64,000 nucleotides of DNA from positions 1 to 64,000 of the IMG/VR virus record IMGVR_UViG_3300032093_000068; one strand, written 5' to 3'. Below, piece after piece: positions 669 through 13,051 of this stretch. The notes under the pieces are model-generated. The model did not search any database. It saw only the letters and a list, made by a program, of their open reading frames with translations, and was not told where the DNA came from. Position 1 is the first letter of the stretch. Each line of letters begins with the position of its first letter. The position numbers were made by a program, and so were the translations under genes. The stretch comes from a virus.

Positions 669-856
669 TGAGTAAGAGATACTCAACAGTCTTTTGTCCA
701 AGACTCATTTAACAATGGACTAGCAGAATGTCTACGGCTAGAGTGAGACATCGTGGGATAAAGAGACTGACACAATCTCTCCCAGTAGTGTTGGCTGTTT
801 TTATGGGGGACGCCCCGCAGGTTTTTAAGATAATAGAAAACCGAATTAACTACTCA
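669..856 (+). ncRNA. Unassigned multi-pseudoknot structured RNA (about 190 nt)
   Basis: TGAGTA/TACTCA closing stem; CAGTCTTT/AGAGACTG; GTCCA/TGGAC; TAGC/GCTA; crossing pairings ATGTCT/AGACAT, ACTC/GAGT, TGGGA/TCCCA, AGAGAT/ATCTCT. Confidence 0.6.
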
Positions 857-881
857 CCTATAATCTCAAGGTGGGGAACAT

Positions 882-1000
882 GGTCAGGTGGCGGAATTGG
901 TTAGACGCTGCCGTGGGGCGACACCACTCTATAAAAACAGCATAAGCTCTCGCAATTAGGCGCCAGTTGCGAGGTGCAGGTTCGAGTCCTGTCCTGACTG
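882..1000 (+). ncRNA. tRNA-like RNA without a canonical anticodon arm
   Basis: Acceptor GGTCAGG/CCTGACT, Leu/Ser-type D-arm and T-arm GCAGG-TTCGAGT-CCTGT; the anticodon/variable region is replaced by about 65 nt containing two hairpins. Confidence 0.7.
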
Positions 1001-1009
1001 CATATTTTA

Positions 1010-1087
1010 TGATGAGCTTTCCTACACCCAGGGTTAGTGAATTTTTTAAAGGGGAACATACGGTACACAAGCCCGTAGGCTCATCAA
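1010..1087 (+). ncRNA. Unassigned structured RNA between tRNAs
   Basis: TGATGAGC/GCTCATCA closing stem, TTCCT/AGGGG(AA), TACGG/CCGTA. Confidence 0.45.
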
Positions 1088-1090
1088 AAT

Positions 1091-2908: not shown

Positions 2909-3316
2909 ATGAAAACATATCTTTTCTTGGACGATTTCAGAAATCCTGATCATTGCGTTTCATATATGAGGTTAAGAACCGAGGATTCTGCAATGTACAC
3001 CAGGGAAAAATGGATTGTAGTTAAAAACTACGATGAATTTGTTAACTACATATCAACAAATGGATTACCTTATTTAATTTCATTTGATCACGATCTTGCT
3101 GACGAACATTATGATCAATCATTGTATTTGACAAATTATGATGACATGTCAAAATCTTTTAAAGAAAAAACAGGTTTGGATTGCGCCAAATGGTTGGTTG
3201 ATTATTGCTTAGATAATAGTTTAAAATTACCAAAATTTGCCGTCCATTCAATGAATCCGGTAGGAGCTGAAAATATTTCATCATACTTAAAATCATTTGA
3301 ACAATTTCAATGGTGA
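2909..3316 (+). CDS. Cyclic-phosphate-processing receiver-domain protein
   Basis: LFLDDxR, ISFDHDL, TGLDCAKWL and HSMNPVG motifs. Confidence 0.8.
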   Translation: MKTYLFLDDFRNPDHCVSYMRLRTEDSAMYTREKWIVVKNYDEFVNYISTNGLPYLISFDHDLADEHYDQSLYLTNYDDMSKSFKEKTGLDCAKWLVDYCLDNSLKLPKFAVHSMNPVGAENISSYLKSFEQFQW

Positions 3317-3354
3317 TTTTGTTTTTTTAAATTTTTTTTATACCTTTGTAATCT

Positions 3355-4023
3355 ATGAGCAGTATTAAAATAGAACTATCAAGTTCATCTCAAAATATTT
3401 GGATCACCTCAGATACCCATTATGGGCACAAAAATATTTGTCGTGGAGTTACAGATTGGAGGCTAGACGATGGATCAATTCCTATTGATCAGACTAGAGA
3501 TTTTAAATCCATAGATAGTATGAATGCATCTATTATCAATAATATTAATGAATTTGTCAATCAAGATGATATTCTGTTCCATCTTGGTGACTGGTCTTTT
3601 GGAGGTTTTGAGAACATTCGTAATTTTTGGGATAGAATTGTTTGTAAAAACATACATTTGGTTTTAGGTAATCACGATCATCACATTGAAAGAAATAGAG
3701 GTGGATGTAAAGGATTATTTAAAAGCGTAAATGATTATGTTGAATTATCTGTTGGTGGTAAGAAATTTGTTTTAATGCACTACCCCCTCTCATCTTGGAA
3801 TGGTTTAAATAAAGGTGTAATCCATCTTCACGGGCATGTTCATTTACCAAACCACAAAAAATTTGGTAAAGGTCGCAAAATGGATGTCGGAATTGATGGT
3901 TCCACAGAATTTAGACCTTATAATTTAATTAAAGAGATTATTCCGATTATGATTAAACGTAATATCATTTCAGATATGGAGTTTGATCACCATACTGATG
4001 AATTAAAAAATGTTGTTGGTTAA
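3355..4023 (+). CDS. Calcineurin-like metallophosphoesterase
   Basis: SDTHYGH, HLGD, GNHD, HYP, HGHVH. Confidence 0.9.
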   Translation: MSSIKIELSSSSQNIWITSDTHYGHKNICRGVTDWRLDDGSIPIDQTRDFKSIDSMNASIINNINEFVNQDDILFHLGDWSFGGFENIRNFWDRIVCKNIHLVLGNHDHHIERNRGGCKGLFKSVNDYVELSVGGKKFVLMHYPLSSWNGLNKGVIHLHGHVHLPNHKKFGKGRKMDVGIDGSTEFRPYNLIKEIIPIMIKRNIISDMEFDHHTDELKNVVG

Positions 4024-4024
4024 C

Positions 4025-4246
4025 ATGGAAAATATATCAAAAAGACAAAATTTCATATCTGTTGATAATAACACAGCTATAAATTCATATGGTAATATTT
4101 TTACCGTAGGAGAAGTTGTAAGACATGAAGATAAAGAAGCTGGTTTTGCAACAATTTTGAGTTTTGAGCCTAGAATTGATGAAAATGAAATTACAGTTCA
4201 TACAAATAAAGGTTTTGCACATATTGACTTTTTGGTAAAGTTTTAG
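4025..4246 (+). CDS. Hypothetical protein
   Basis: ORF in operon; ATG at 4025. Confidence 0.6.
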   Translation: MENISKRQNFISVDNNTAINSYGNIFTVGEVVRHEDKEAGFATILSFEPRIDENEITVHTNKGFAHIDFLVKF

Positions 4247-4260
4247 ATTTTTGTAAAAAA

Positions 4261-4506
4261 ATGCTCGGTTTGAAAAAAAACTCAATATTTGTTATAGTTT
4301 CAATTGTTCTAATATTTGCGATGAATTTTATTTTTAATACAAATATAAGTTCAAACAAGACTTATTATGAAATAACTTCAAACGAAATAGGAAGGTGTTA
4401 TCAGGCAAAAAACATTATCAAACAAGAAAGTGGTTGTATTTTCTTTAATGATATATTTGATAATGAACAAATTGTTTGTGGAAATTATTCAGTTACAAAA
4501 TACTAA
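4261..4506 (+). CDS. Hypothetical membrane-anchored protein
   Basis: N-terminal hydrophobic helix. Confidence 0.6.
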   Translation: MLGLKKNSIFVIVSIVLIFAMNFIFNTNISSNKTYYEITSNEIGRCYQAKNIIKQESGCIFFNDIFDNEQIVCGNYSVTKY

Positions 4507-4643
4507 TGGGTAAAACGTATCGTAATCAGAAAGGTGATATGCCGAAATCTAAGAGTTCAAACGGTAATCACAACAAAAACAAGTCAAACAAAAAAAATCA
4601 GGACAAAAAAGGAAAATTCCGTTCAGATGATTTTGATAATTAG
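4506..4643 (+). CDS. Small basic protein (45 aa; not in the ORF track)
   Basis: MGKTYRNQKGDMPKSKSSNGNHNKNKSNKKNQDKKGKFRSDDFDN; TAATG overlap with the previous stop. Confidence 0.55.
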   Translation: MGKTYRNQKGDMPKSKSSNGNHNKNKSNKKNQDKKGKFRSDDFDN

Positions 4644-4725
4644 AAATTATCAATTAATTTTATATAACCCCACCGAAAAACCGACAAATATTTAGTTTGT
4701 GGGATGAAAATCGATTTTTTATAAA

Positions 4726-5100
4726 ATGTTTAAAGTAGTTAAATATTGCTCAGAACAAATTGAATATATTCAATTTGAATTATCGGCATTGGTTGATAAT
4801 GATGGTAATTTTTATAATCGTTCTTTTAATTGCGTCAATCGTAAGAACTCTAATGGTGGTTTTTCATATGAATTTATTTGGGATAATGCTAAATGGTTGT
4901 TGAATGAGTTTTATCCTGTTTTAAAACATGCGGTAAAAGATAATATTAATCTATATGACTTAAAACCCGAATGGTTTGATGACATTGATATTGAAAAAGA
5001 AGGTGAGCTTGAAATTTTGAAATATGAACTATTTTATAAAGATATCTTAGAGATGTTTGATTTGGCAATAAAAGATGGTTTATTTACTGAAAAAATTTAA
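4726..5100 (+). CDS. Hypothetical protein
   Basis: 124-aa ORF. Confidence 0.65.
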   Translation: MFKVVKYCSEQIEYIQFELSALVDNDGNFYNRSFNCVNRKNSNGGFSYEFIWDNAKWLLNEFYPVLKHAVKDNINLYDLKPEWFDDIDIEKEGELEILKYELFYKDILEMFDLAIKDGLFTEKI

Positions 5101-5105
5101 AAAAA

Positions 5106-5858
5106 ATGGAAAGAAAATTAGCAAGTATTAGAATTATATCTGATTTGCGCCCAATTGAGGGTGCTGATAAAATAGAATTGGCCATCGTTGATGGATGGAA
5201 AGTAGTTGTTGCAAAAGATGTAGGTCACAAAGTTGGTGACAAAGTTATTTATTGTGAGATTGACTCATTTTTACCTATTAAACCTGAATTCGAATTTTTG
5301 CGAAAATCATCATATAAAAAGATGGCCGACGGTTCTGAAGGTTTTCGTTTGAGAACCGTAAAACTTCGCGGACAGGTTAGTCAAGGTTTGATTTTACCTT
5401 TATCGTTAATTAATTACACTAACTTAGATTTTAAGGTTGGTATGGATGTAACTATGATGTTGGGGATTAATAAATACGAGCCTCCAATTCCGGCAGAACT
5501 TGCTGGTAAGGTAAAAGGTTTGTTTCCATCGTTTATACCTAAAACCGACGAGGTGAGATGTTTATCTGAAGAAACCGAATTAATAACTGAAGATGGTATT
5601 AAAACAATCAAAGAAATTTGTGAAACTAAATATATTGGTAAAGTTTTGAGTTTTAATGTTTTTGAAAACAAAAACGAAATGAACACCATAAATTCTCACT
5701 CAGTACAAAAAAATAATAATGATTGGTATGAAATTGAATTAATTTCAGGTAAAATTCTTAAACTAACAGGTAACCATAGAATTTGGTTACCAGAACTTAA
5801 TTGTTATAGAGAAGTTAAAGAACTTTTAGGTGATGAAGTTGTAAAAATAACGGATTAA
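5106..5858 (+). CDS. RNA ligase (DRB0094-type) N-extein fused to N-half of a split intein
   Basis: RKLASI..I.PIEGADKIE, RLRTVKLRGQVSQGL, FPSFIPKTDEVR, then intein block A CLSEETELITEDG (Cys at nt 5559) and block B LKLTGNHRIW; stops after about 99 aa of intein. Confidence 0.9.
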   Translation: MERKLASIRIISDLRPIEGADKIELAIVDGWKVVVAKDVGHKVGDKVIYCEIDSFLPIKPEFEFLRKSSYKKMADGSEGFRLRTVKLRGQVSQGLILPLSLINYTNLDFKVGMDVTMMLGINKYEPPIPAELAGKVKGLFPSFIPKTDEVRCLSEETELITEDGIKTIKEICETKYIGKVLSFNVFENKNEMNTINSHSVQKNNNDWYEIELISGKILKLTGNHRIWLPELNCYREVKELLGDEVVKITD

Positions 5859-5907
5859 GTTCTGTTTTTTATATAAAGTTAGATATTTATATGTAAATAA
5901 ATATGTT

Positions 5908-6876
5908 ATGGAATGTCTAATTTGTAAAAAAGAGTTTATAAAAAAAAATCATTTAAAAATACATATTAATCATCATCACCCTAATAATAAGCTTGAAAAT
6001 GAGGTTCTATATTTAAAATCATTAGAAACCAAAATACCTATTAATTTGATCGATATTAAAAATATGTATTTGGATGGGAGTACTATTGATGATATCAAAA
6101 AAAAATATGGTGTTAGTGTTGGTAATTATATTTTATTATTGGGTATTAAACGAACTGCTAGCGAAAGTAAAAAAACTAAACAATATAAAGACAAATTTGA
6201 AAAAACTTTAATTGATCGCTACGGTGTTAAAAATCCTTCTCAATCCGAAGATGTGAAATTAAAAAAGAAAAACACATTTTTTAAAAACTATGGATATGAA
6301 AACAATTTTAATAATGAAACAATAAGAAAATATGCAATTTCAAAAATTAACTACACCGAAGTATTGAAAAAAAGTAAAGAAACTTTAAAGTTAAGATATG
6401 GCGATAATATAATTAATCCAGCTCAACTAGGTTGGGTTAAAGAAAAAATATCAAAATCTCAAAAAGATAGATTATCTAAACTATCAACAGATGAATTAAG
6501 ATCTTTAACTGAAAAGGCCAGAGGTAATTTAAAATATGTTAGTAAACAAGAATTAAGGATACAATCAATTCTAAATGAATTAAATATTACTTATACGGCA
6601 AATGGTTTTTTATATAGTTATAATTGGGATTTAATTTTTAAAAATAAAATCATAATTGAAGTTCAGGGGGACTTCTGGCATGGTAGCCCTAAATTATATA
6701 AAGAATCTGATATTTTACTAAATGGGTTAACCGTTAAGGATGTTTGGGAAAAAGATAAAAAAAAACTTAAATTAATCGAATCAAAAGGCTATAAGGTTTA
6801 TTATCTTTGGGAAAGTGATATTAATCATATGAGTGACTTTGAATTGTTAAATGCATTAAAAGAAATATTATGTTAG
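5908..6876 (+). mobile_element. Free-standing Vsr/DUF559-like (PD-(D/E)xK) putative homing endonuclease gene inside the split intein
   Basis: N-terminal C2H2 finger, three YGxxN-type repeats, C-terminal WDL..IIEVQGDFWHG..D.KK..GYKVYYLWE; own TATTTAT motif at 5884. Confidence 0.8.
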
Positions 6877-7538
6877 ATAAGATTAAAACAATAAAAAAAA
6901 TAAAAAATAAATCTAAGCGTTACGATGTTGGGGTTGAAAATGTAAATAATTTTTACGCTAATGGTGTGCTTGTTCATAATTGTCAGAACTTATCTTCTGA
7001 GTATGAAGAAATGAAAAAACATACCTACTATGTTACAGAAAAACTTGATGGTTCCTCTGCAACATTTTATGTCAAAGATGGTGAGTTTGGTATATGTTCT
7101 CGTAATTTGGAACTTTTAGAAAGTGAAACCAACACATTTTGGAGAGTTGCAAGAATTTTGGATTTAGAAAATAAAATGAAAAGTTTGAATAAAAATATTT
7201 CATTTCAGGGTGAACTTATAGGTGAAGGTATACAAGGAAATCCATATAAAGTTATCGGTCAAACTGTTAAATTTTTTAATATATTTGATATTGATAATTT
7301 CAAATATTACGAATTCGCGGATTTTATTTATGTTATGGCTTTTTTAGGTCTTAGTTACGTACCTGTATTATCTGAGGATTTCAAACTACCTGAAACTATT
7401 GATGAATTAATTAACTTTGCAGATGATAAATCACAATTAAATCAAAATTTTGATAGAGAAGGTATCGTTATTAGGTCTTATGACAAATCAGTTTCATTCA
7501 AAGTCATCTCAAACAAATTTTTACTTTCAGAAAAATGA
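6870..7538 (+). CDS. Split intein C-half (37 aa) fused to RNA ligase C-extein
   Basis: YDVGVENVNNFYANGVLVHN|C (junction 6980/6981); ligase motifs EKLDGSS, QGELIG, FNIFD, REGIVIR, FKVISNKFL. Confidence 0.92.
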   Translation: MLDKIKTIKKIKNKSKRYDVGVENVNNFYANGVLVHNCQNLSSEYEEMKKHTYYVTEKLDGSSATFYVKDGEFGICSRNLELLESETNTFWRVARILDLENKMKSLNKNISFQGELIGEGIQGNPYKVIGQTVKFFNIFDIDNFKYYEFADFIYVMAFLGLSYVPVLSEDFKLPETIDELINFADDKSQLNQNFDREGIVIRSYDKSVSFKVISNKFLLSEK

Positions 7539-8149
7539 TAGATAATATAGTTGCAATAAAAGATTTACTAACTTTTGAATCTGAGGATGATTTTTATCAT
7601 CTTCAGATTTTGAAACGCAAAAAAGAAAATCCTGAGCTTGGATCAAATTCTTATGTGGTCAAAACATATTACATCAATTCAATAGAATATTTGGATTCAA
7701 AAATTGATGAAATTATTCATCTTTGTAATTTCCATAATGCGAGGGCTTGTATAAATCTTAATCGTAGGTCATATGAAAAAATCGCTTTTCATACCTTAAA
7801 AAAGGTTACTGATCAAATTATGAATAAGGATTTTAAATCGGTTAGAAAGGCTTACGAATCTATCTGCGGTTCATTTTCAAATGAAAAAGATAAAAAATGG
7901 ATTATTGATATTGACCATAAAGATTTTGATTTGAGCGAGGTTAAAAGACATGTATTTTACAATAATTTAATTTCAAACATCCAAAGTTTAATTTTTCAAA
8001 CCGGTAAAGATGATACTATAACCACAATTCCGACCAAAAATGGTTTTCACCTAATCACAAGACCTTTCAATTTAGAAGAATTTAGAAAAATGCACGGTGA
8101 AAAAATTGCGGTTCAAAAAGATAATCCCACCCTTTTGTATATGTCATAA
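7535..8149 (+). CDS. Hypothetical protein with archaeo-eukaryotic primase (AEP)-like motifs
   Basis: hhhDhD (WIIDID) and PTKNGFHLIT resemble AEP motifs I and II. Confidence 0.5.
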   Translation: MIDNIVAIKDLLTFESEDDFYHLQILKRKKENPELGSNSYVVKTYYINSIEYLDSKIDEIIHLCNFHNARACINLNRRSYEKIAFHTLKKVTDQIMNKDFKSVRKAYESICGSFSNEKDKKWIIDIDHKDFDLSEVKRHVFYNNLISNIQSLIFQTGKDDTITTIPTKNGFHLITRPFNLEEFRKMHGEKIAVQKDNPTLLYMS

Positions 8150-8169
8150 TTTTTTTGTAATTTAGCAAA

Positions 8170-9231
8170 ATGTTAGAAACCTTAGAGAAATATTATAACG
8201 AGGGATTACTTTATAAACAAGTACATCCAACTTTACCATTAACTATATGGAACTATAATGAAAAGGTTCAATATGAAAATCTGTGGGACGATATTACTCT
8301 AATGTGCCGTGGTTTGGTAACTGATGACAATGGGAATGTTGTTGCTCGCCCGTTTAAAAAATTTTTTAATCTTAGTGAACAAAAACACTCCGCAACCGAA
8401 AAGTTTGATGTGTATGATAAATTAGACGGCTCACTTGGTATTTTTTTCTATTATAACGGTGGTTGGATTATGGCAACTCGCGGATCATTTACTTCTGATC
8501 AAGCGGTTAAGGGGTATGAAATGATGTTTAAATATGATTTCGCGTCCTTACATAAGGATTATACTTATTTGTTTGAAATCATATACAAACAAAATAGAAT
8601 AGTGTGCCAATATGATTTTGAAGATGTCATTCTACTTGGTATGATAAACACCAAAACCGGTCAAGAAGTTGATTTATACTCAGACAATTATGACGTTAGA
8701 TTTTCTAATATGATAAAAAATTTGGGGTTCAAATTGGCCAAAAAATACGATGGAATCAAGGACTACAAAGAACTTAAATCTATGATAAAAGATAATGAGG
8801 AAGGTTTTGTTGTTAAGTTTTCTAACGGAGATAGAATAAAAATAAAAGGTGATGAATATTTGAGATTACATAAAATAATGACACAAATATCGACCACCTC
8901 AATATGGGAATGTCTTAAAAATGGAGATGATATAGAATCTTTACTTAAAGATGTTCCTGACGAATTTTATAAAAAAATAAAATTATATGTTGGAAATCTA
9001 AAATATCATCATTTTCAAATATCTGAATATTGTGGTAAAATGCACGATTATTTCAGATATGGAAAATATAATGATGTCGATCCTGAACCAACCAAATCTG
9101 AATTTGCAAAGTTCGTTCAAACTAATATTAATAAAAGAGAATTACATTCTGTAATGTTTGCAATGTGGGATAGAAAAGATTATAGTCAAATAATATGGAA
9201 ATTAATTAAACCAAAATATGAAAAACTTTAA
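8170..9231 (+). CDS. rnlA: T4 RnlA/Rnl1-type RNA ligase
   Basis: CRGLV, RPFKKFFN, KLDGSLG, ATRGSF, FEII, EGFVV, KIKGDEY. Confidence 0.88.
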   Translation: MLETLEKYYNEGLLYKQVHPTLPLTIWNYNEKVQYENLWDDITLMCRGLVTDDNGNVVARPFKKFFNLSEQKHSATEKFDVYDKLDGSLGIFFYYNGGWIMATRGSFTSDQAVKGYEMMFKYDFASLHKDYTYLFEIIYKQNRIVCQYDFEDVILLGMINTKTGQEVDLYSDNYDVRFSNMIKNLGFKLAKKYDGIKDYKELKSMIKDNEEGFVVKFSNGDRIKIKGDEYLRLHKIMTQISTTSIWECLKNGDDIESLLKDVPDEFYKKIKLYVGNLKYHHFQISEYCGKMHDYFRYGKYNDVDPEPTKSEFAKFVQTNINKRELHSVMFAMWDRKDYSQIIWKLIKPKYEKL

Positions 9232-10987: not shown

Positions 10988-11862
10988 AATGGATTATCCA
11001 TCAAGTGAAAGTAGTCCTTCGGGATGATGATAACTTGTAAACGATAATGGGCTGTGTATAGTCCTTAAATAAACCACGAAAGTGGGATAAAGTGAATCCT
11101 CAAGTGTAAGGGGTTTGCGGTTTGAAATAACTTCGGTTGTTTTGAACTCGAGTACACAAACGGGATATCAATAAACCTGTAGTACCGAGGATAACTTCGT
11201 AGGGAAATGGATTATTGATGGGGCGATGTGGGTCGTCCTGTTGAGGTGGGAACACCAATAAGAATAACCCGTAGGGATTTTGTAAAAAATGTTATTATCC
11301 GATAATATTATTACGAGTTCCAATATGAAAGGATACTTAAAACCGAAGGGGCAACCTCAAAGGTATGATAAAGAACGAGTGGTGTCGCTATTATCCTTAA
11401 AGATGACTTACCAAAGTCTCTTTTTGAAGTAATCTTAAAATATGGAGGTGGGGACACTTCAAGGAGTAGTTTGATATTTGGTAATTCAAAAGATTACTAA
11501 GTCGGTGGCGGACCACTACTTCTATAATCCACAACACGTAACTTCGATTTAAAATTCAACTTTTAAAAAAGAGCAAAAGTGTCCGTCAGGTATTAGTGAA
11601 AGGTGACTACATAGTAATGAGCCGTTCATTGCCTCTGATAACCGCAAGTTTGATGAGATTTTTATGAAATACCTCTAATCTCGCAAGGATTAACTGGGGA
11701 GGCATTCTCGGGGAGAGTTGAGTAATAAAAGAGTAACTAGTACCTCAAGGAGTGGTTAGTCTAACTAACCGTCACTGGAAATTACCATTCAAAAGATGGT
11801 GGATACATAGGGAACCCATAATCCTATAAAAGATTTCCAATAAAACGTGTAATCTCAGCGTA
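10988..11862 (+). ncRNA. Large ornate ncRNA, about 870 nt, probably GOLLD-like
   Basis: No ORF, raised GC, many GNRA/UUCG-capped hairpins (GTCC-TTCG-GGAT, CCAC-GAAA-GTGG, TAAC-TTCG-GTTG, GGTG-GGAA-CACC, CGCAAG loops), long-range TGAGATT/AATCTCA pairing; size and adjacent tRNA fit GOLLD; family not confirmed. Confidence 0.6.
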
Positions 11863-12680: not shown

Positions 12681-13051
12681 TGGTGGAGATGCGGGGTGCC
12701 GCCCCCCGGTCTTGTTCACTTTGATAATTAAGGACTACGTAAATAGTACAACATTATTTCTTAATGTTCCGAAATATTAGCTTTCTAACTCAGAAAACCA
12801 CAAACGAGTTTTGTTTCTTTTAGGATAGAAACCACACCCTACAAGTACTTCTGTTCCAAGGTTAAATGTACGCCGACCCGTTGTAGGTTTGCCTTAGGCT
12901 ACTGCTACTTTTTCAGAAGTACGAACAAGTCCTACAGCTGAAAGTTTGTTGATAACGTTTCCGTCTAATTGATAAGTCAGTTTTACAAGGTTAACTCAGC
13001 CTCGTTACGCCCCTAATTAGCAACCGTGCCAATCAATGCTATGTCATCCCC
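12681..13051 (-). ncRNA. ssrA: tmRNA (one-piece)
   Basis: 5' GGGGATG and 3' CATCTCC-ACCA with G3.U70 pair; tag ORF GNVINKLSAVGLVRTSEKVAVA-stop; promoter TATATTTG at 13080-13087 (-). Confidence 0.9.

Follow-up and report, generated by a model that had tools for sequence, protein, structure and literature searches.

Near the start of an uncultured virus sequence, within an array of transfer RNA (tRNA) genes, lies a gene that has the outer parts of a tRNA and two hairpins in place of the anticodon and variable arms, which raises the question of whether it is a broken tRNA or an RNA with a function of its own. The sequence analysed here, which we call the window, is the first 64 kb of the 85.5-kb IMG/VR record IMGVR_UViG_3300032093_000068 (CheckV completeness 28%, implying a jumbo phage of roughly 300 kb); ARAGORN finds 14 tRNAs between positions 87 and 2110 at its start, and the element in question occupies positions 882-1000. 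A sequence-only reading of the window had proposed a non-decoding tRNA-like RNA as opposed to a decayed tRNA, and our results agree with it: the element has no anticodon arm, no deletion restores one, and its insert is conserved with compensatory changes. It belongs to a large set of phage genes in which one nearly constant tRNA frame surrounds many different inserts. What remains, once the other identities discussed below are set aside, is an RNA that appears to be functional, non-decoding and tRNA-shaped.

By sequence and Rfam alignment the acceptor stem, the Leu-type D arm, the T arm and both hairpins lie where the earlier reading had drawn them (Table 1). Neither hairpin loop has a U at loop position 2, i.e. 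neither has the U33 turn, as that reading had also pointed out. The elbow nucleotides U8, A14, G18G19 and the T-loop UUCGAnU are all present. The match to the Rfam tRNA model (32.4 bits against a cut-off of 29) begins and ends exactly with the element and covers the acceptor, D and T arms only, 18 model positions being replaced by 63 nt, and ARAGORN makes no tRNA call at 882-1000; Rfam recognizes a tRNA only by skipping the anticodon arm. A 5-bp anticodon stem with a 7-nt loop, U33 and a purine at position 37 is not found in the element, nor is the A73 of leucine identity (its discriminator is G1000), and the pair 3:70 is U:A, where the hallmark of a transfer-messenger RNA (tmRNA) would be G3:U70. 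Folded alone, the element is unremarkable (z = -1.47; 19 of 200 shuffles equal or better), and its RNAfold structure has a different, extended D helix. Two random 7-nt loops share at least four complementary bases in about 5% of cases, and one or other of them contains a 6-nt palindrome in about 6%, so that the loop complementarities alone are weak evidence, each being about a 1-in-20 event. Because the fold is not unusual and the loop coincidences are each of this order, a single sequence could not settle the question; that the element is more than a chance arrangement is shown by its homologues, at the level of sequence comparison, and not by the lone sequence.

Homologues of the window insert were collected by one metagenome scan and two further IMG/VR scans. 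Among the early search patterns, the first gave 0 matches and another 52, of which one had a T-loop-like motif nearby and none the 5' frame; these were taken as chance. Besides a copy identical to that of the window (L242), five other distinct homologues were found (L244, L245, L246, L247, which is the same as L248 and L249, and L250), and the counts that follow come from the alignment of the six distinct sequences sharing the insert (A4). The six sit in five unrelated contexts, their flanks placing them behind another tRNA-like gene, ahead of a protein gene, or after a promoter-like TGnTATAAT. The stem of hairpin 1 and its loop GGCGACA are invariant in all six (18 of 20 columns for the junction plus hairpin 1), as are 14 of 22 linker columns, the AAAAACAGCATAAG core carrying one substitution each in two of the six homologues, and six of the seven acceptor pairs. 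In the stem of hairpin 2 only one of nine columns per side is invariant, yet 96.3% of cells are paired, and seven of the nine pairs have changed on both sides, compared with one or two in controls in which the partner was slid by 1-3 columns. Since this stem contains G.U pairs, the pairing is at the RNA level on the + strand and does not reflect a DNA palindrome. The sequence-only reading had looked to covariation in the inserted hairpins and between their loops; it is seen in hairpin 2 and in the palindrome of its loop, it is not seen in the loop 1-loop 2 pair, and hairpin 1 is invariant.

The self-complementary GGCGCC of loop 2, in which the earlier reading saw a possible site of dimerization, has fared well. 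A 6-nt palindrome is kept in five of the six homologues, as GGCGCC, GGTACC or, in three of them, TGTACA, while the sixth has AGTACA with the GTAC core only; two of the three self-pairs show a change in both partners, and 17 of 18 cells (94.4%) are paired. Retention of a palindrome through compensatory change matches what an intermolecular loop-loop contact would predict, and dimerization through loop 2 is in this way supported by the alignment. The computed free-strand loop-loop duplex energies are -14.7 (the GGCGCC of the window), -11.2 and -6.4 kcal/mol. The other contact proposed for these loops, an intramolecular kiss between loop 1 and loop 2, must be given up: loop 1 stays constant while loop 2 changes, pairing is possible in only 69% of cells, three of four sequences break the C:G pair, and no compensation is seen. 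The discriminator of the subfamily varies as well (G, G, A, C, A, A), and a fixed amino-acid (synthetase) identity therefore appears unlikely for it.

The sequence-only reading missed that the element is a member of a very large family of constant frame and variable insert. Sixty loci that encode relatives of the neighbouring phosphoesterase contain many elements with near-identical outer sequence, AGTCAGGTGGCGGAAT(T)GGTAGACGC ... (T)ACAGGTTCGAATCCTGTCCTGACTAC, around wholly different middles of ~30-130 nt; at the RNA level this near-invariant frame reads AGUCAGG...ACAGGUUCGAAUCCUGUCCUGACUA. We defined the family by the 5' frame (A/G)GUCAGGUGGCGGAA... and the 3' frame CAGGUUCGAnUCCUGUCCUGAC around a non-anticodon insert, and the window copy has 0 mismatches to both motifs. 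The frame pattern matches at least 120 IMG/VR stretches, and 214 copies, 199 of them unique, were extracted from 181 sources. The unique copies form about 151 insert similarity clusters, the window copy being initially a singleton. Most loci carry one copy, 28 carry two and single loci carry 5, 7 and 11, with ~13 copies within one 5-kb stretch inside a tRNA cluster at L132; three complete genomes of 197-309 kb have 2, 3 and 7 copies, those of each genome all lying on one strand. The nearest neighbour is on the same strand in all 126 of the 211 copies that lie at most 500 nt from a tRNA or another copy. The leader of the family tends to end in AAAT, with U at -1 in the window copy, and the trailer starts with CAAA.

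Homologues with a normal anticodon arm or an excisable intron would have spoken for an ordinary tRNA; by a strict test a canonical arm is present in 1 of 196 copies, against a shuffle mean of 0.5, and in the window copy the number of restoring deletions is zero. Of the 199 copies, 53 receive a label from ARAGORN, with 38 different and mostly meaningless 'anticodons' among them. The sole canonical copy (L078 element E028, 72 nt, CCGAT-CTTTTAA-ATCGG, Lys UUU, with a short variable loop) may be a working tRNA-Lys on the family frame. Across the family A is the discriminator of 185 of 196 copies, G of nine and T of two. Ordinary tRNAs that share an anticodon are 65-72% identical across the 60 protein-selected loci and use 6-14 different acceptor 7-mers; the family acceptor in the same loci varies only by single pairing-preserving transitions. 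Many deposited phages have genes, annotated as tRNA-Leu, that match the frame's 5' half; in family-bearing phages, however, the real tRNA-Leu genes differ from the family in their acceptor stems and have ordinary anticodon loops. A few relatives have another layout. At L029:4871-4947, and also in L032 and L055, there is a 73-nt frame relative (GGTCAGG...CCTGACT) with a body of normal length and an 8-nt anticodon-like loop, to which ARAGORN gives the 4-base anticodon gaaa. L046:13424-13589, L132:11140-11229 and L179:3009-3130 have extra D-loop hairpins or a second T-arm-like hairpin in the insert, and in these variants the acceptor and T arms are constant even where the D arm differs.

A search of 185,579 prokaryotic species, one genome each, turns up the frame in just eight contigs of metagenome-assembled genomes and in no isolate genome. 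These eight contigs, of scattered taxonomy and mostly from lake bins, are probably mis-binned phage; a host tRNA as the model that is being mimicked is rejected on the same count, and the AGUCAGG frame is, judged from this sampling, specific to phages. Within the deposited phages of INPHARED, none of 274 partially matching records covers at least 80% of any family member, and the window region 700-1100 has no match among deposited phages.

The inserts behave as conserved units. In the 11 insert clusters with at least three members, mean identity is 83% in the insert and 91-96% in the frames, and falls to 36-37% in the 60-nt flanks, which are unalignable. Compensated pairs occur in the insert helices of two other subfamilies, and the 148 inserts examined fold better than their dinucleotide shuffles (p about 1e-10; mean z = -0.61). 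Rfam at its gathering threshold gave 140 matches in 11 element-rich loci, all of them tRNA except two GOLLD, and no family for the inserts or spacers. The loops GGCGCC and GUGUACA recur in unrelated inserts, and different family members could, by this complementarity, pair with each other through common palindromes. Unrelated inserts with the same loop palindromes were noted in L077 E026, L095 E051 and L170 E181 (AAGGCGCCA, GTGTACA, CAATGTACACA).

The explanation that we favour, and in which we place about half of our confidence, is that 882-1000 encodes a small RNA, processed but non-decoding, in which an invariant phage tRNA frame carries the insert as the working part, like a natural 'tRNA scaffold'. 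The frame would fold into the L-shape of a tRNA, and host tRNA enzymes would then cut the RNA out of a polycistronic transcript of tRNAs and non-coding RNAs: RNase P would cut at 881/882, also finishing the 3' end of a 210-nt RNA upstream, the 3' end would be trimmed and CCA added after G1000, and the tRNA fold would keep the product stable. The insert would replace the decoding arm; its invariant hairpin and linker (GUGG-GGCGACA-CCAC...AAAAACAGCAUAAG) presumably bind a partner, and the 9-bp hairpin 2 with its palindromic loop would let two molecules pair loop to loop. The phage lineage would use the same frame for about 150 different inserts. The processing, stability, dimer formation, partner and biological role in this scheme are ones that we infer. 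The setting of the element speaks for such processing: tRNA and family neighbours share a strand, the window copy has U at -1, the upstream RNA abuts the element, and an RNA-library contig identical to the window spans 729-962. We favour it because it explains the constant frame, the individually conserved inserts, the invariant half of the insert and the placement among tRNAs, and also because an engineered design with the same layout works in bacteria: in the tRNA scaffold of Ponchon and Dardel, as reported, the acceptor stem, along with the T and D arms, is retained and the anticodon stem-loop is swapped for an insert, the aim being that the tRNA enzymes of the cell process the RNA and that it is shielded from decay, both of which happen in Escherichia coli (PMC3753655). 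The element differs from this design in being natural and phage-encoded, in that its insert also takes the variable arm, and in that its processing and stability are predicted. A broader version, which we hold tentatively and think rather unlikely to be right in full, is that in freshwater GOLLD-bearing jumbo phages one tRNA-Leu-derived chassis expresses, processes and stabilizes at least ~150 payloads, the frame being fixed by a dedicated, probably phage-encoded partner, and that the window RNA is a tRNA-shaped dimer or pairs with members sharing its palindrome.

Several observations weigh against a scaffold role. Copies were recruited by frame similarity, so that frame conservation is partly built in and diverged members would be missed. 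Apart from D-arm remnants the inserts have no common motif; palindromic hairpin loops are not significantly enriched family-wide (6 of 149 against a null of 3.3 +/- 1.8), and one homologue type of the window insert keeps GTAC instead of the 6-nt palindrome. No partner or target for the insert was found in an antisense search of the 85-kb record or in the five homologue-bearing records: the best antisense match in the former, 12 nt at 11376 just upstream of GOLLD, was equalled by 19 of 100 shuffles and is rejected as chance, and the latter, which are fragments, gave a single match each to the complement of the invariant stretch, taken, with coordinates unchecked, as the opposite strand of the element itself. 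Contigs from a lake metatranscriptome (X20) reach a depth of ~360 over 685-912 and fall to 0 over 913-1026, although an RNA-library contig identical to the window (X19) spans 729-962. This RNA evidence consists of assembled contigs, which show neither ends nor levels, and the uncovered part is no evidence of absence; structured tRNA-like RNAs are poorly captured by ordinary libraries. Finally, a scaffold role leaves the near-invariant frame sequence unexplained, as ordinary tRNAs are processed with many different stems.

Since processing alone needs no invariant frame sequence, a rival in which the frame is itself the working part stays alive. The RNA would be a decoy, a role that the sequence-only reading had offered as an example, or a sponge for something that binds the acceptor/T/D body of tRNAs. 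Candidates for that factor are a synthetase, EF-Tu, a tRNA-binding protein encoded by the phage, or a toxin of host defence that acts on the acceptor ends of tRNAs, and the insert would merely plug the gap left by the anticodon arm. A frame that is near-invariant across phages whose ordinary tRNAs differ widely, several copies per genome and an RNA-repair gene cluster 2 kb downstream are what one might expect of such a decoy, but a plug could do without a loop and linker that do not vary, without a palindrome preserved through compensatory change, and without ~150 insert types each conserved between phages. Leucine charging cuts both ways. A73 and the contacts U8-A14, G18-U55 and G19-C56, reported as needed for charging by bacterial leucyl-tRNA synthetase (LeuRS), are all found in the family (A73 in 185 of 196 copies), and aminoacylation is reported not to require the anticodon arm (PMC2377443), whereas the window copy has G1.U72 and G73, the discriminator of its subfamily varies, and the change A73G is reported to cost 143-fold in leucylation by Aquifex LeuRS (PMC2377443). 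The 85-kb fragment yielded no domain of a class I synthetase, a CCA-adding enzyme or an L/F-transferase, a result that is uninformative at 28% completeness. On balance we regard a decoy as a possible but unlikely account of the element.

More doubtful still is that the element serves mainly in cis, as a cutting signal for RNase P and RNase Z that releases the non-coding RNAs on either side of it, much as mitochondrial tRNAs act as processing punctuation. The upstream neighbour is a conserved RNA of ~210 nt that ends at the base before the element, the two abutting with no gap; an nhmmer search recovers it from 16 loci, 15 of them with the full length, and there it nearly always has tRNA or family genes, used interchangeably, a few bases away on both sides; Rfam on 470-900 gives nothing credible for it. 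Spacers between tRNA and family genes likewise form conserved clusters, the downstream spacer, with its long-range ATGATGAGC/GCTCATCA stem, belonging to the largest (15 members) and others having 12, 9, 9 and 8 members. Punctuation explains neither the conserved, covarying insert and palindromic loop nor why an ordinary tRNA would not do, and many copies stand alone or beside protein genes. Such a role is likely to be at least a side effect, and is compatible with a scaffold as a second role of the same RNA.

A pseudogene left by the decay or disabling of a tRNA-Leu/Ser, or an intron-interrupted tRNA, is barely credible as an account of the element: its position in a tRNA array, low tRNA score and lack of an ARAGORN call, together with a poor 'tRNA-Asn(att)' with a 38-nt intron that ARAGORN draws at a lowered threshold, are outweighed by damage that is limited to one region beside an intact frame, by six distinct homologues that keep the insert and its compensated pairs between unrelated flanks, by the near absence of normal anticodon arms from the family, and by two scans of the window copy, since ARAGORN allowing introns of 0-90 nt at its default threshold finds 0 genes and an exhaustive deletion scan finds 0 solutions that restore a canonical arm, against a null mean of 0.23. 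Two further identities were rejected. Neither Rfam nor ARAGORN places a tmRNA at the element, the phage tmRNA found by Rfam lying elsewhere and on the other strand (Table 1), and a YrlA/Y RNA-like RNA (RF02553) has no cmscan match for 840-1040 at E up to 10.

To our knowledge each of the known tRNA mimics (tmRNA, YrlA, the tRNA-like ends of plant viruses) amounts in essence to a single design serving a single job. YrlA carries its tRNA-like part internally, its 5' and 3' ends forming the stem that binds Ro, whereas the ends of the element form a normal acceptor stem. The HIV-1 dimerization initiation site (DIS) is a palindromic kissing-loop hairpin, and phi29 pRNA uses intermolecular loop pairing. 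With DIS the element shares a purine-flanked, 6-nt self-complementary loop sequence and a palindrome that differs among lineages; it differs from DIS and pRNA in being a tRNA-shaped phage RNA whose dimer is predicted from sequence, and one of its homologues keeps only 4 nt. In overall form the element is close to the class II (long-variable-arm) tRNA-Leu of bacteria and phages (RF00005), with which it has in common a 7-bp acceptor stem, a 3-bp D stem with GGAAUUGGU(U)AGA loop, a canonical T arm and a hairpin at the variable-arm position, and to which the family is further tied by A73 in 94% of copies and by the match of its 5' half to annotated phage tRNA-Leu; unlike tRNA-Leu, the element has no anticodon arm or U33, has a 21-nt linker in place of 1-2 nt and a 9-bp 'variable arm' with a palindromic loop, and has G73. 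YrlA and the bacterial and phage Y RNA-like mimics, as described, are also non-decoding, have a tRNA-like elbow and are sometimes phage-encoded (PMC4201824). RNAC and RNAD of T4 are reported as small stable RNAs from the T4 tRNA region with function unknown (PMC3014915), and like the element are small non-tRNA RNAs within a phage tRNA cluster.

Our literature searches found no description of the AGUCAGG-frame family. A 2023 survey of structured RNAs in IMG/VR lists five tRNA-like candidates, none of them Leu-framed in the text consulted (PMC10690425), and its supplementary tables, which lie outside our search, might list members; a recent preprint on bacterial tRNA mimics concerns, as far as its available text goes, other motifs. 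As we read the sequences, what is new here is the size of the family and its design of constant frame and variable insert, the covariation of the insert, the palindromic loop and the rejection of the intramolecular kiss. Annotation misses or misnames the genes of this family, in which a single tRNA frame is reused for very many individually conserved inserts, several per genome, in islands of tRNA and non-coding RNA genes that lie, in uncultured jumbo phages, beside GOLLD RNA, a phage tmRNA and RNA-repair genes. Should the frame be a natural scaffold, the family would be a rich and unexplored store of phage small RNAs, every one having a partner of its own, and a natural precedent for a widely used way of expressing RNA; should the frame instead be the working part, it would point to a factor that reads tRNA bodies sequence-specifically during infection.

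Table 1. The element at 882-1000, its parts and neighbouring features in the window.
Feature	Position	Strand	Details
Whole tRNA-framed RNA gene	882-1000	+	119 nt to discriminator, no CCA encoded; Rfam tRNA match 32.4 bits
Acceptor stem, 5' strand	882-888	+	GGTCAGG; pairs with 993-999; first pair G.U; family consensus AGTCAGG
Leu-type D arm	891-908	+	3-bp stem GCG/CGC; loop with A14, A15, G18G19; Rfam-aligned
Hairpin 1, anticodon-arm position	913-927	+	GTGG (913-916)-GGCGACA (917-923)-CCAC (924-927); 4-bp stem, 7-nt loop, no U33
A-rich linker	928-948	+	AAAAACAGCATAAG core, mostly conserved; possible 3-bp mini-hairpin in RNAfold structure
Hairpin 2, variable-arm position	949-973	+	CTCGCAATT (949-957)-AGGCGCC (958-964)-AGTTGCGAG (965-973); 9-bp stem, 7-nt loop
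6-nt palindrome GGCGCC in loop 2	959-964	+	candidate intermolecular kissing/dimerization site
T arm	976-992	+	GCAGG-TTCGAGT-CCTGT; Rfam-aligned; near-invariant across family
Acceptor stem, 3' strand, and discriminator	993-999, 1000	+	CCTGACT; discriminator G1000
Conserved non-coding RNA	669-881	+	~210 nt; ends at base before element
Spacer between element and tRNA-Gln	1001-1090	+	in largest conserved inter-tRNA spacer cluster
cREC_REC cyclic-phosphate receiver domain	2909-3316	+	RNA-repair cluster
Metallophosphoesterase	3355-4023	+	RNA-repair cluster
RNA ligase	5106-7538	+	RNA-repair cluster; apparently interrupted by intein and homing-endonuclease-like open reading frame
OB-fold half of RNA ligase	5106-5858		
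Homing-endonuclease-like open reading frame	5908-6876		flanked by intein-splicing signatures
Ligase half of RNA ligase	6870-7538		
Rnl1-like ligase	8170-9231	+	RNA-repair cluster
GOLLD RNA	11462-11861	+	Rfam, 330 bits
Phage tmRNA	12681-13051	-	Rfam

The RNA-repair gene cluster (2909-9231, +) lies directly 3' of the tRNA array, ~2 kb downstream of the element. All three complete jumbo genomes that bear the family contain a GOLLD RNA, which lies 1-5 kb from family copies; one record without detected family copies has GOLLD too, one record with copies lacks it, and for its association with the AGUCAGG-frame family lineage cannot be separated from function.

DNA near-identical to the window occurs in 16 public DNA runs, eight of them labelled freshwater or lake water (2017-2025) and eight labelled fungus metagenome (2019). 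In the RNA libraries, the cover of X20 lies at about 440-876; over 440-603 it takes in the 100 nt that separate tRNA-Val from tRNA-Tyr, where depths reach 92, and X17 and X18 cover only about 2493-2825, a region of small open reading frames, at depths of 13 and 8.

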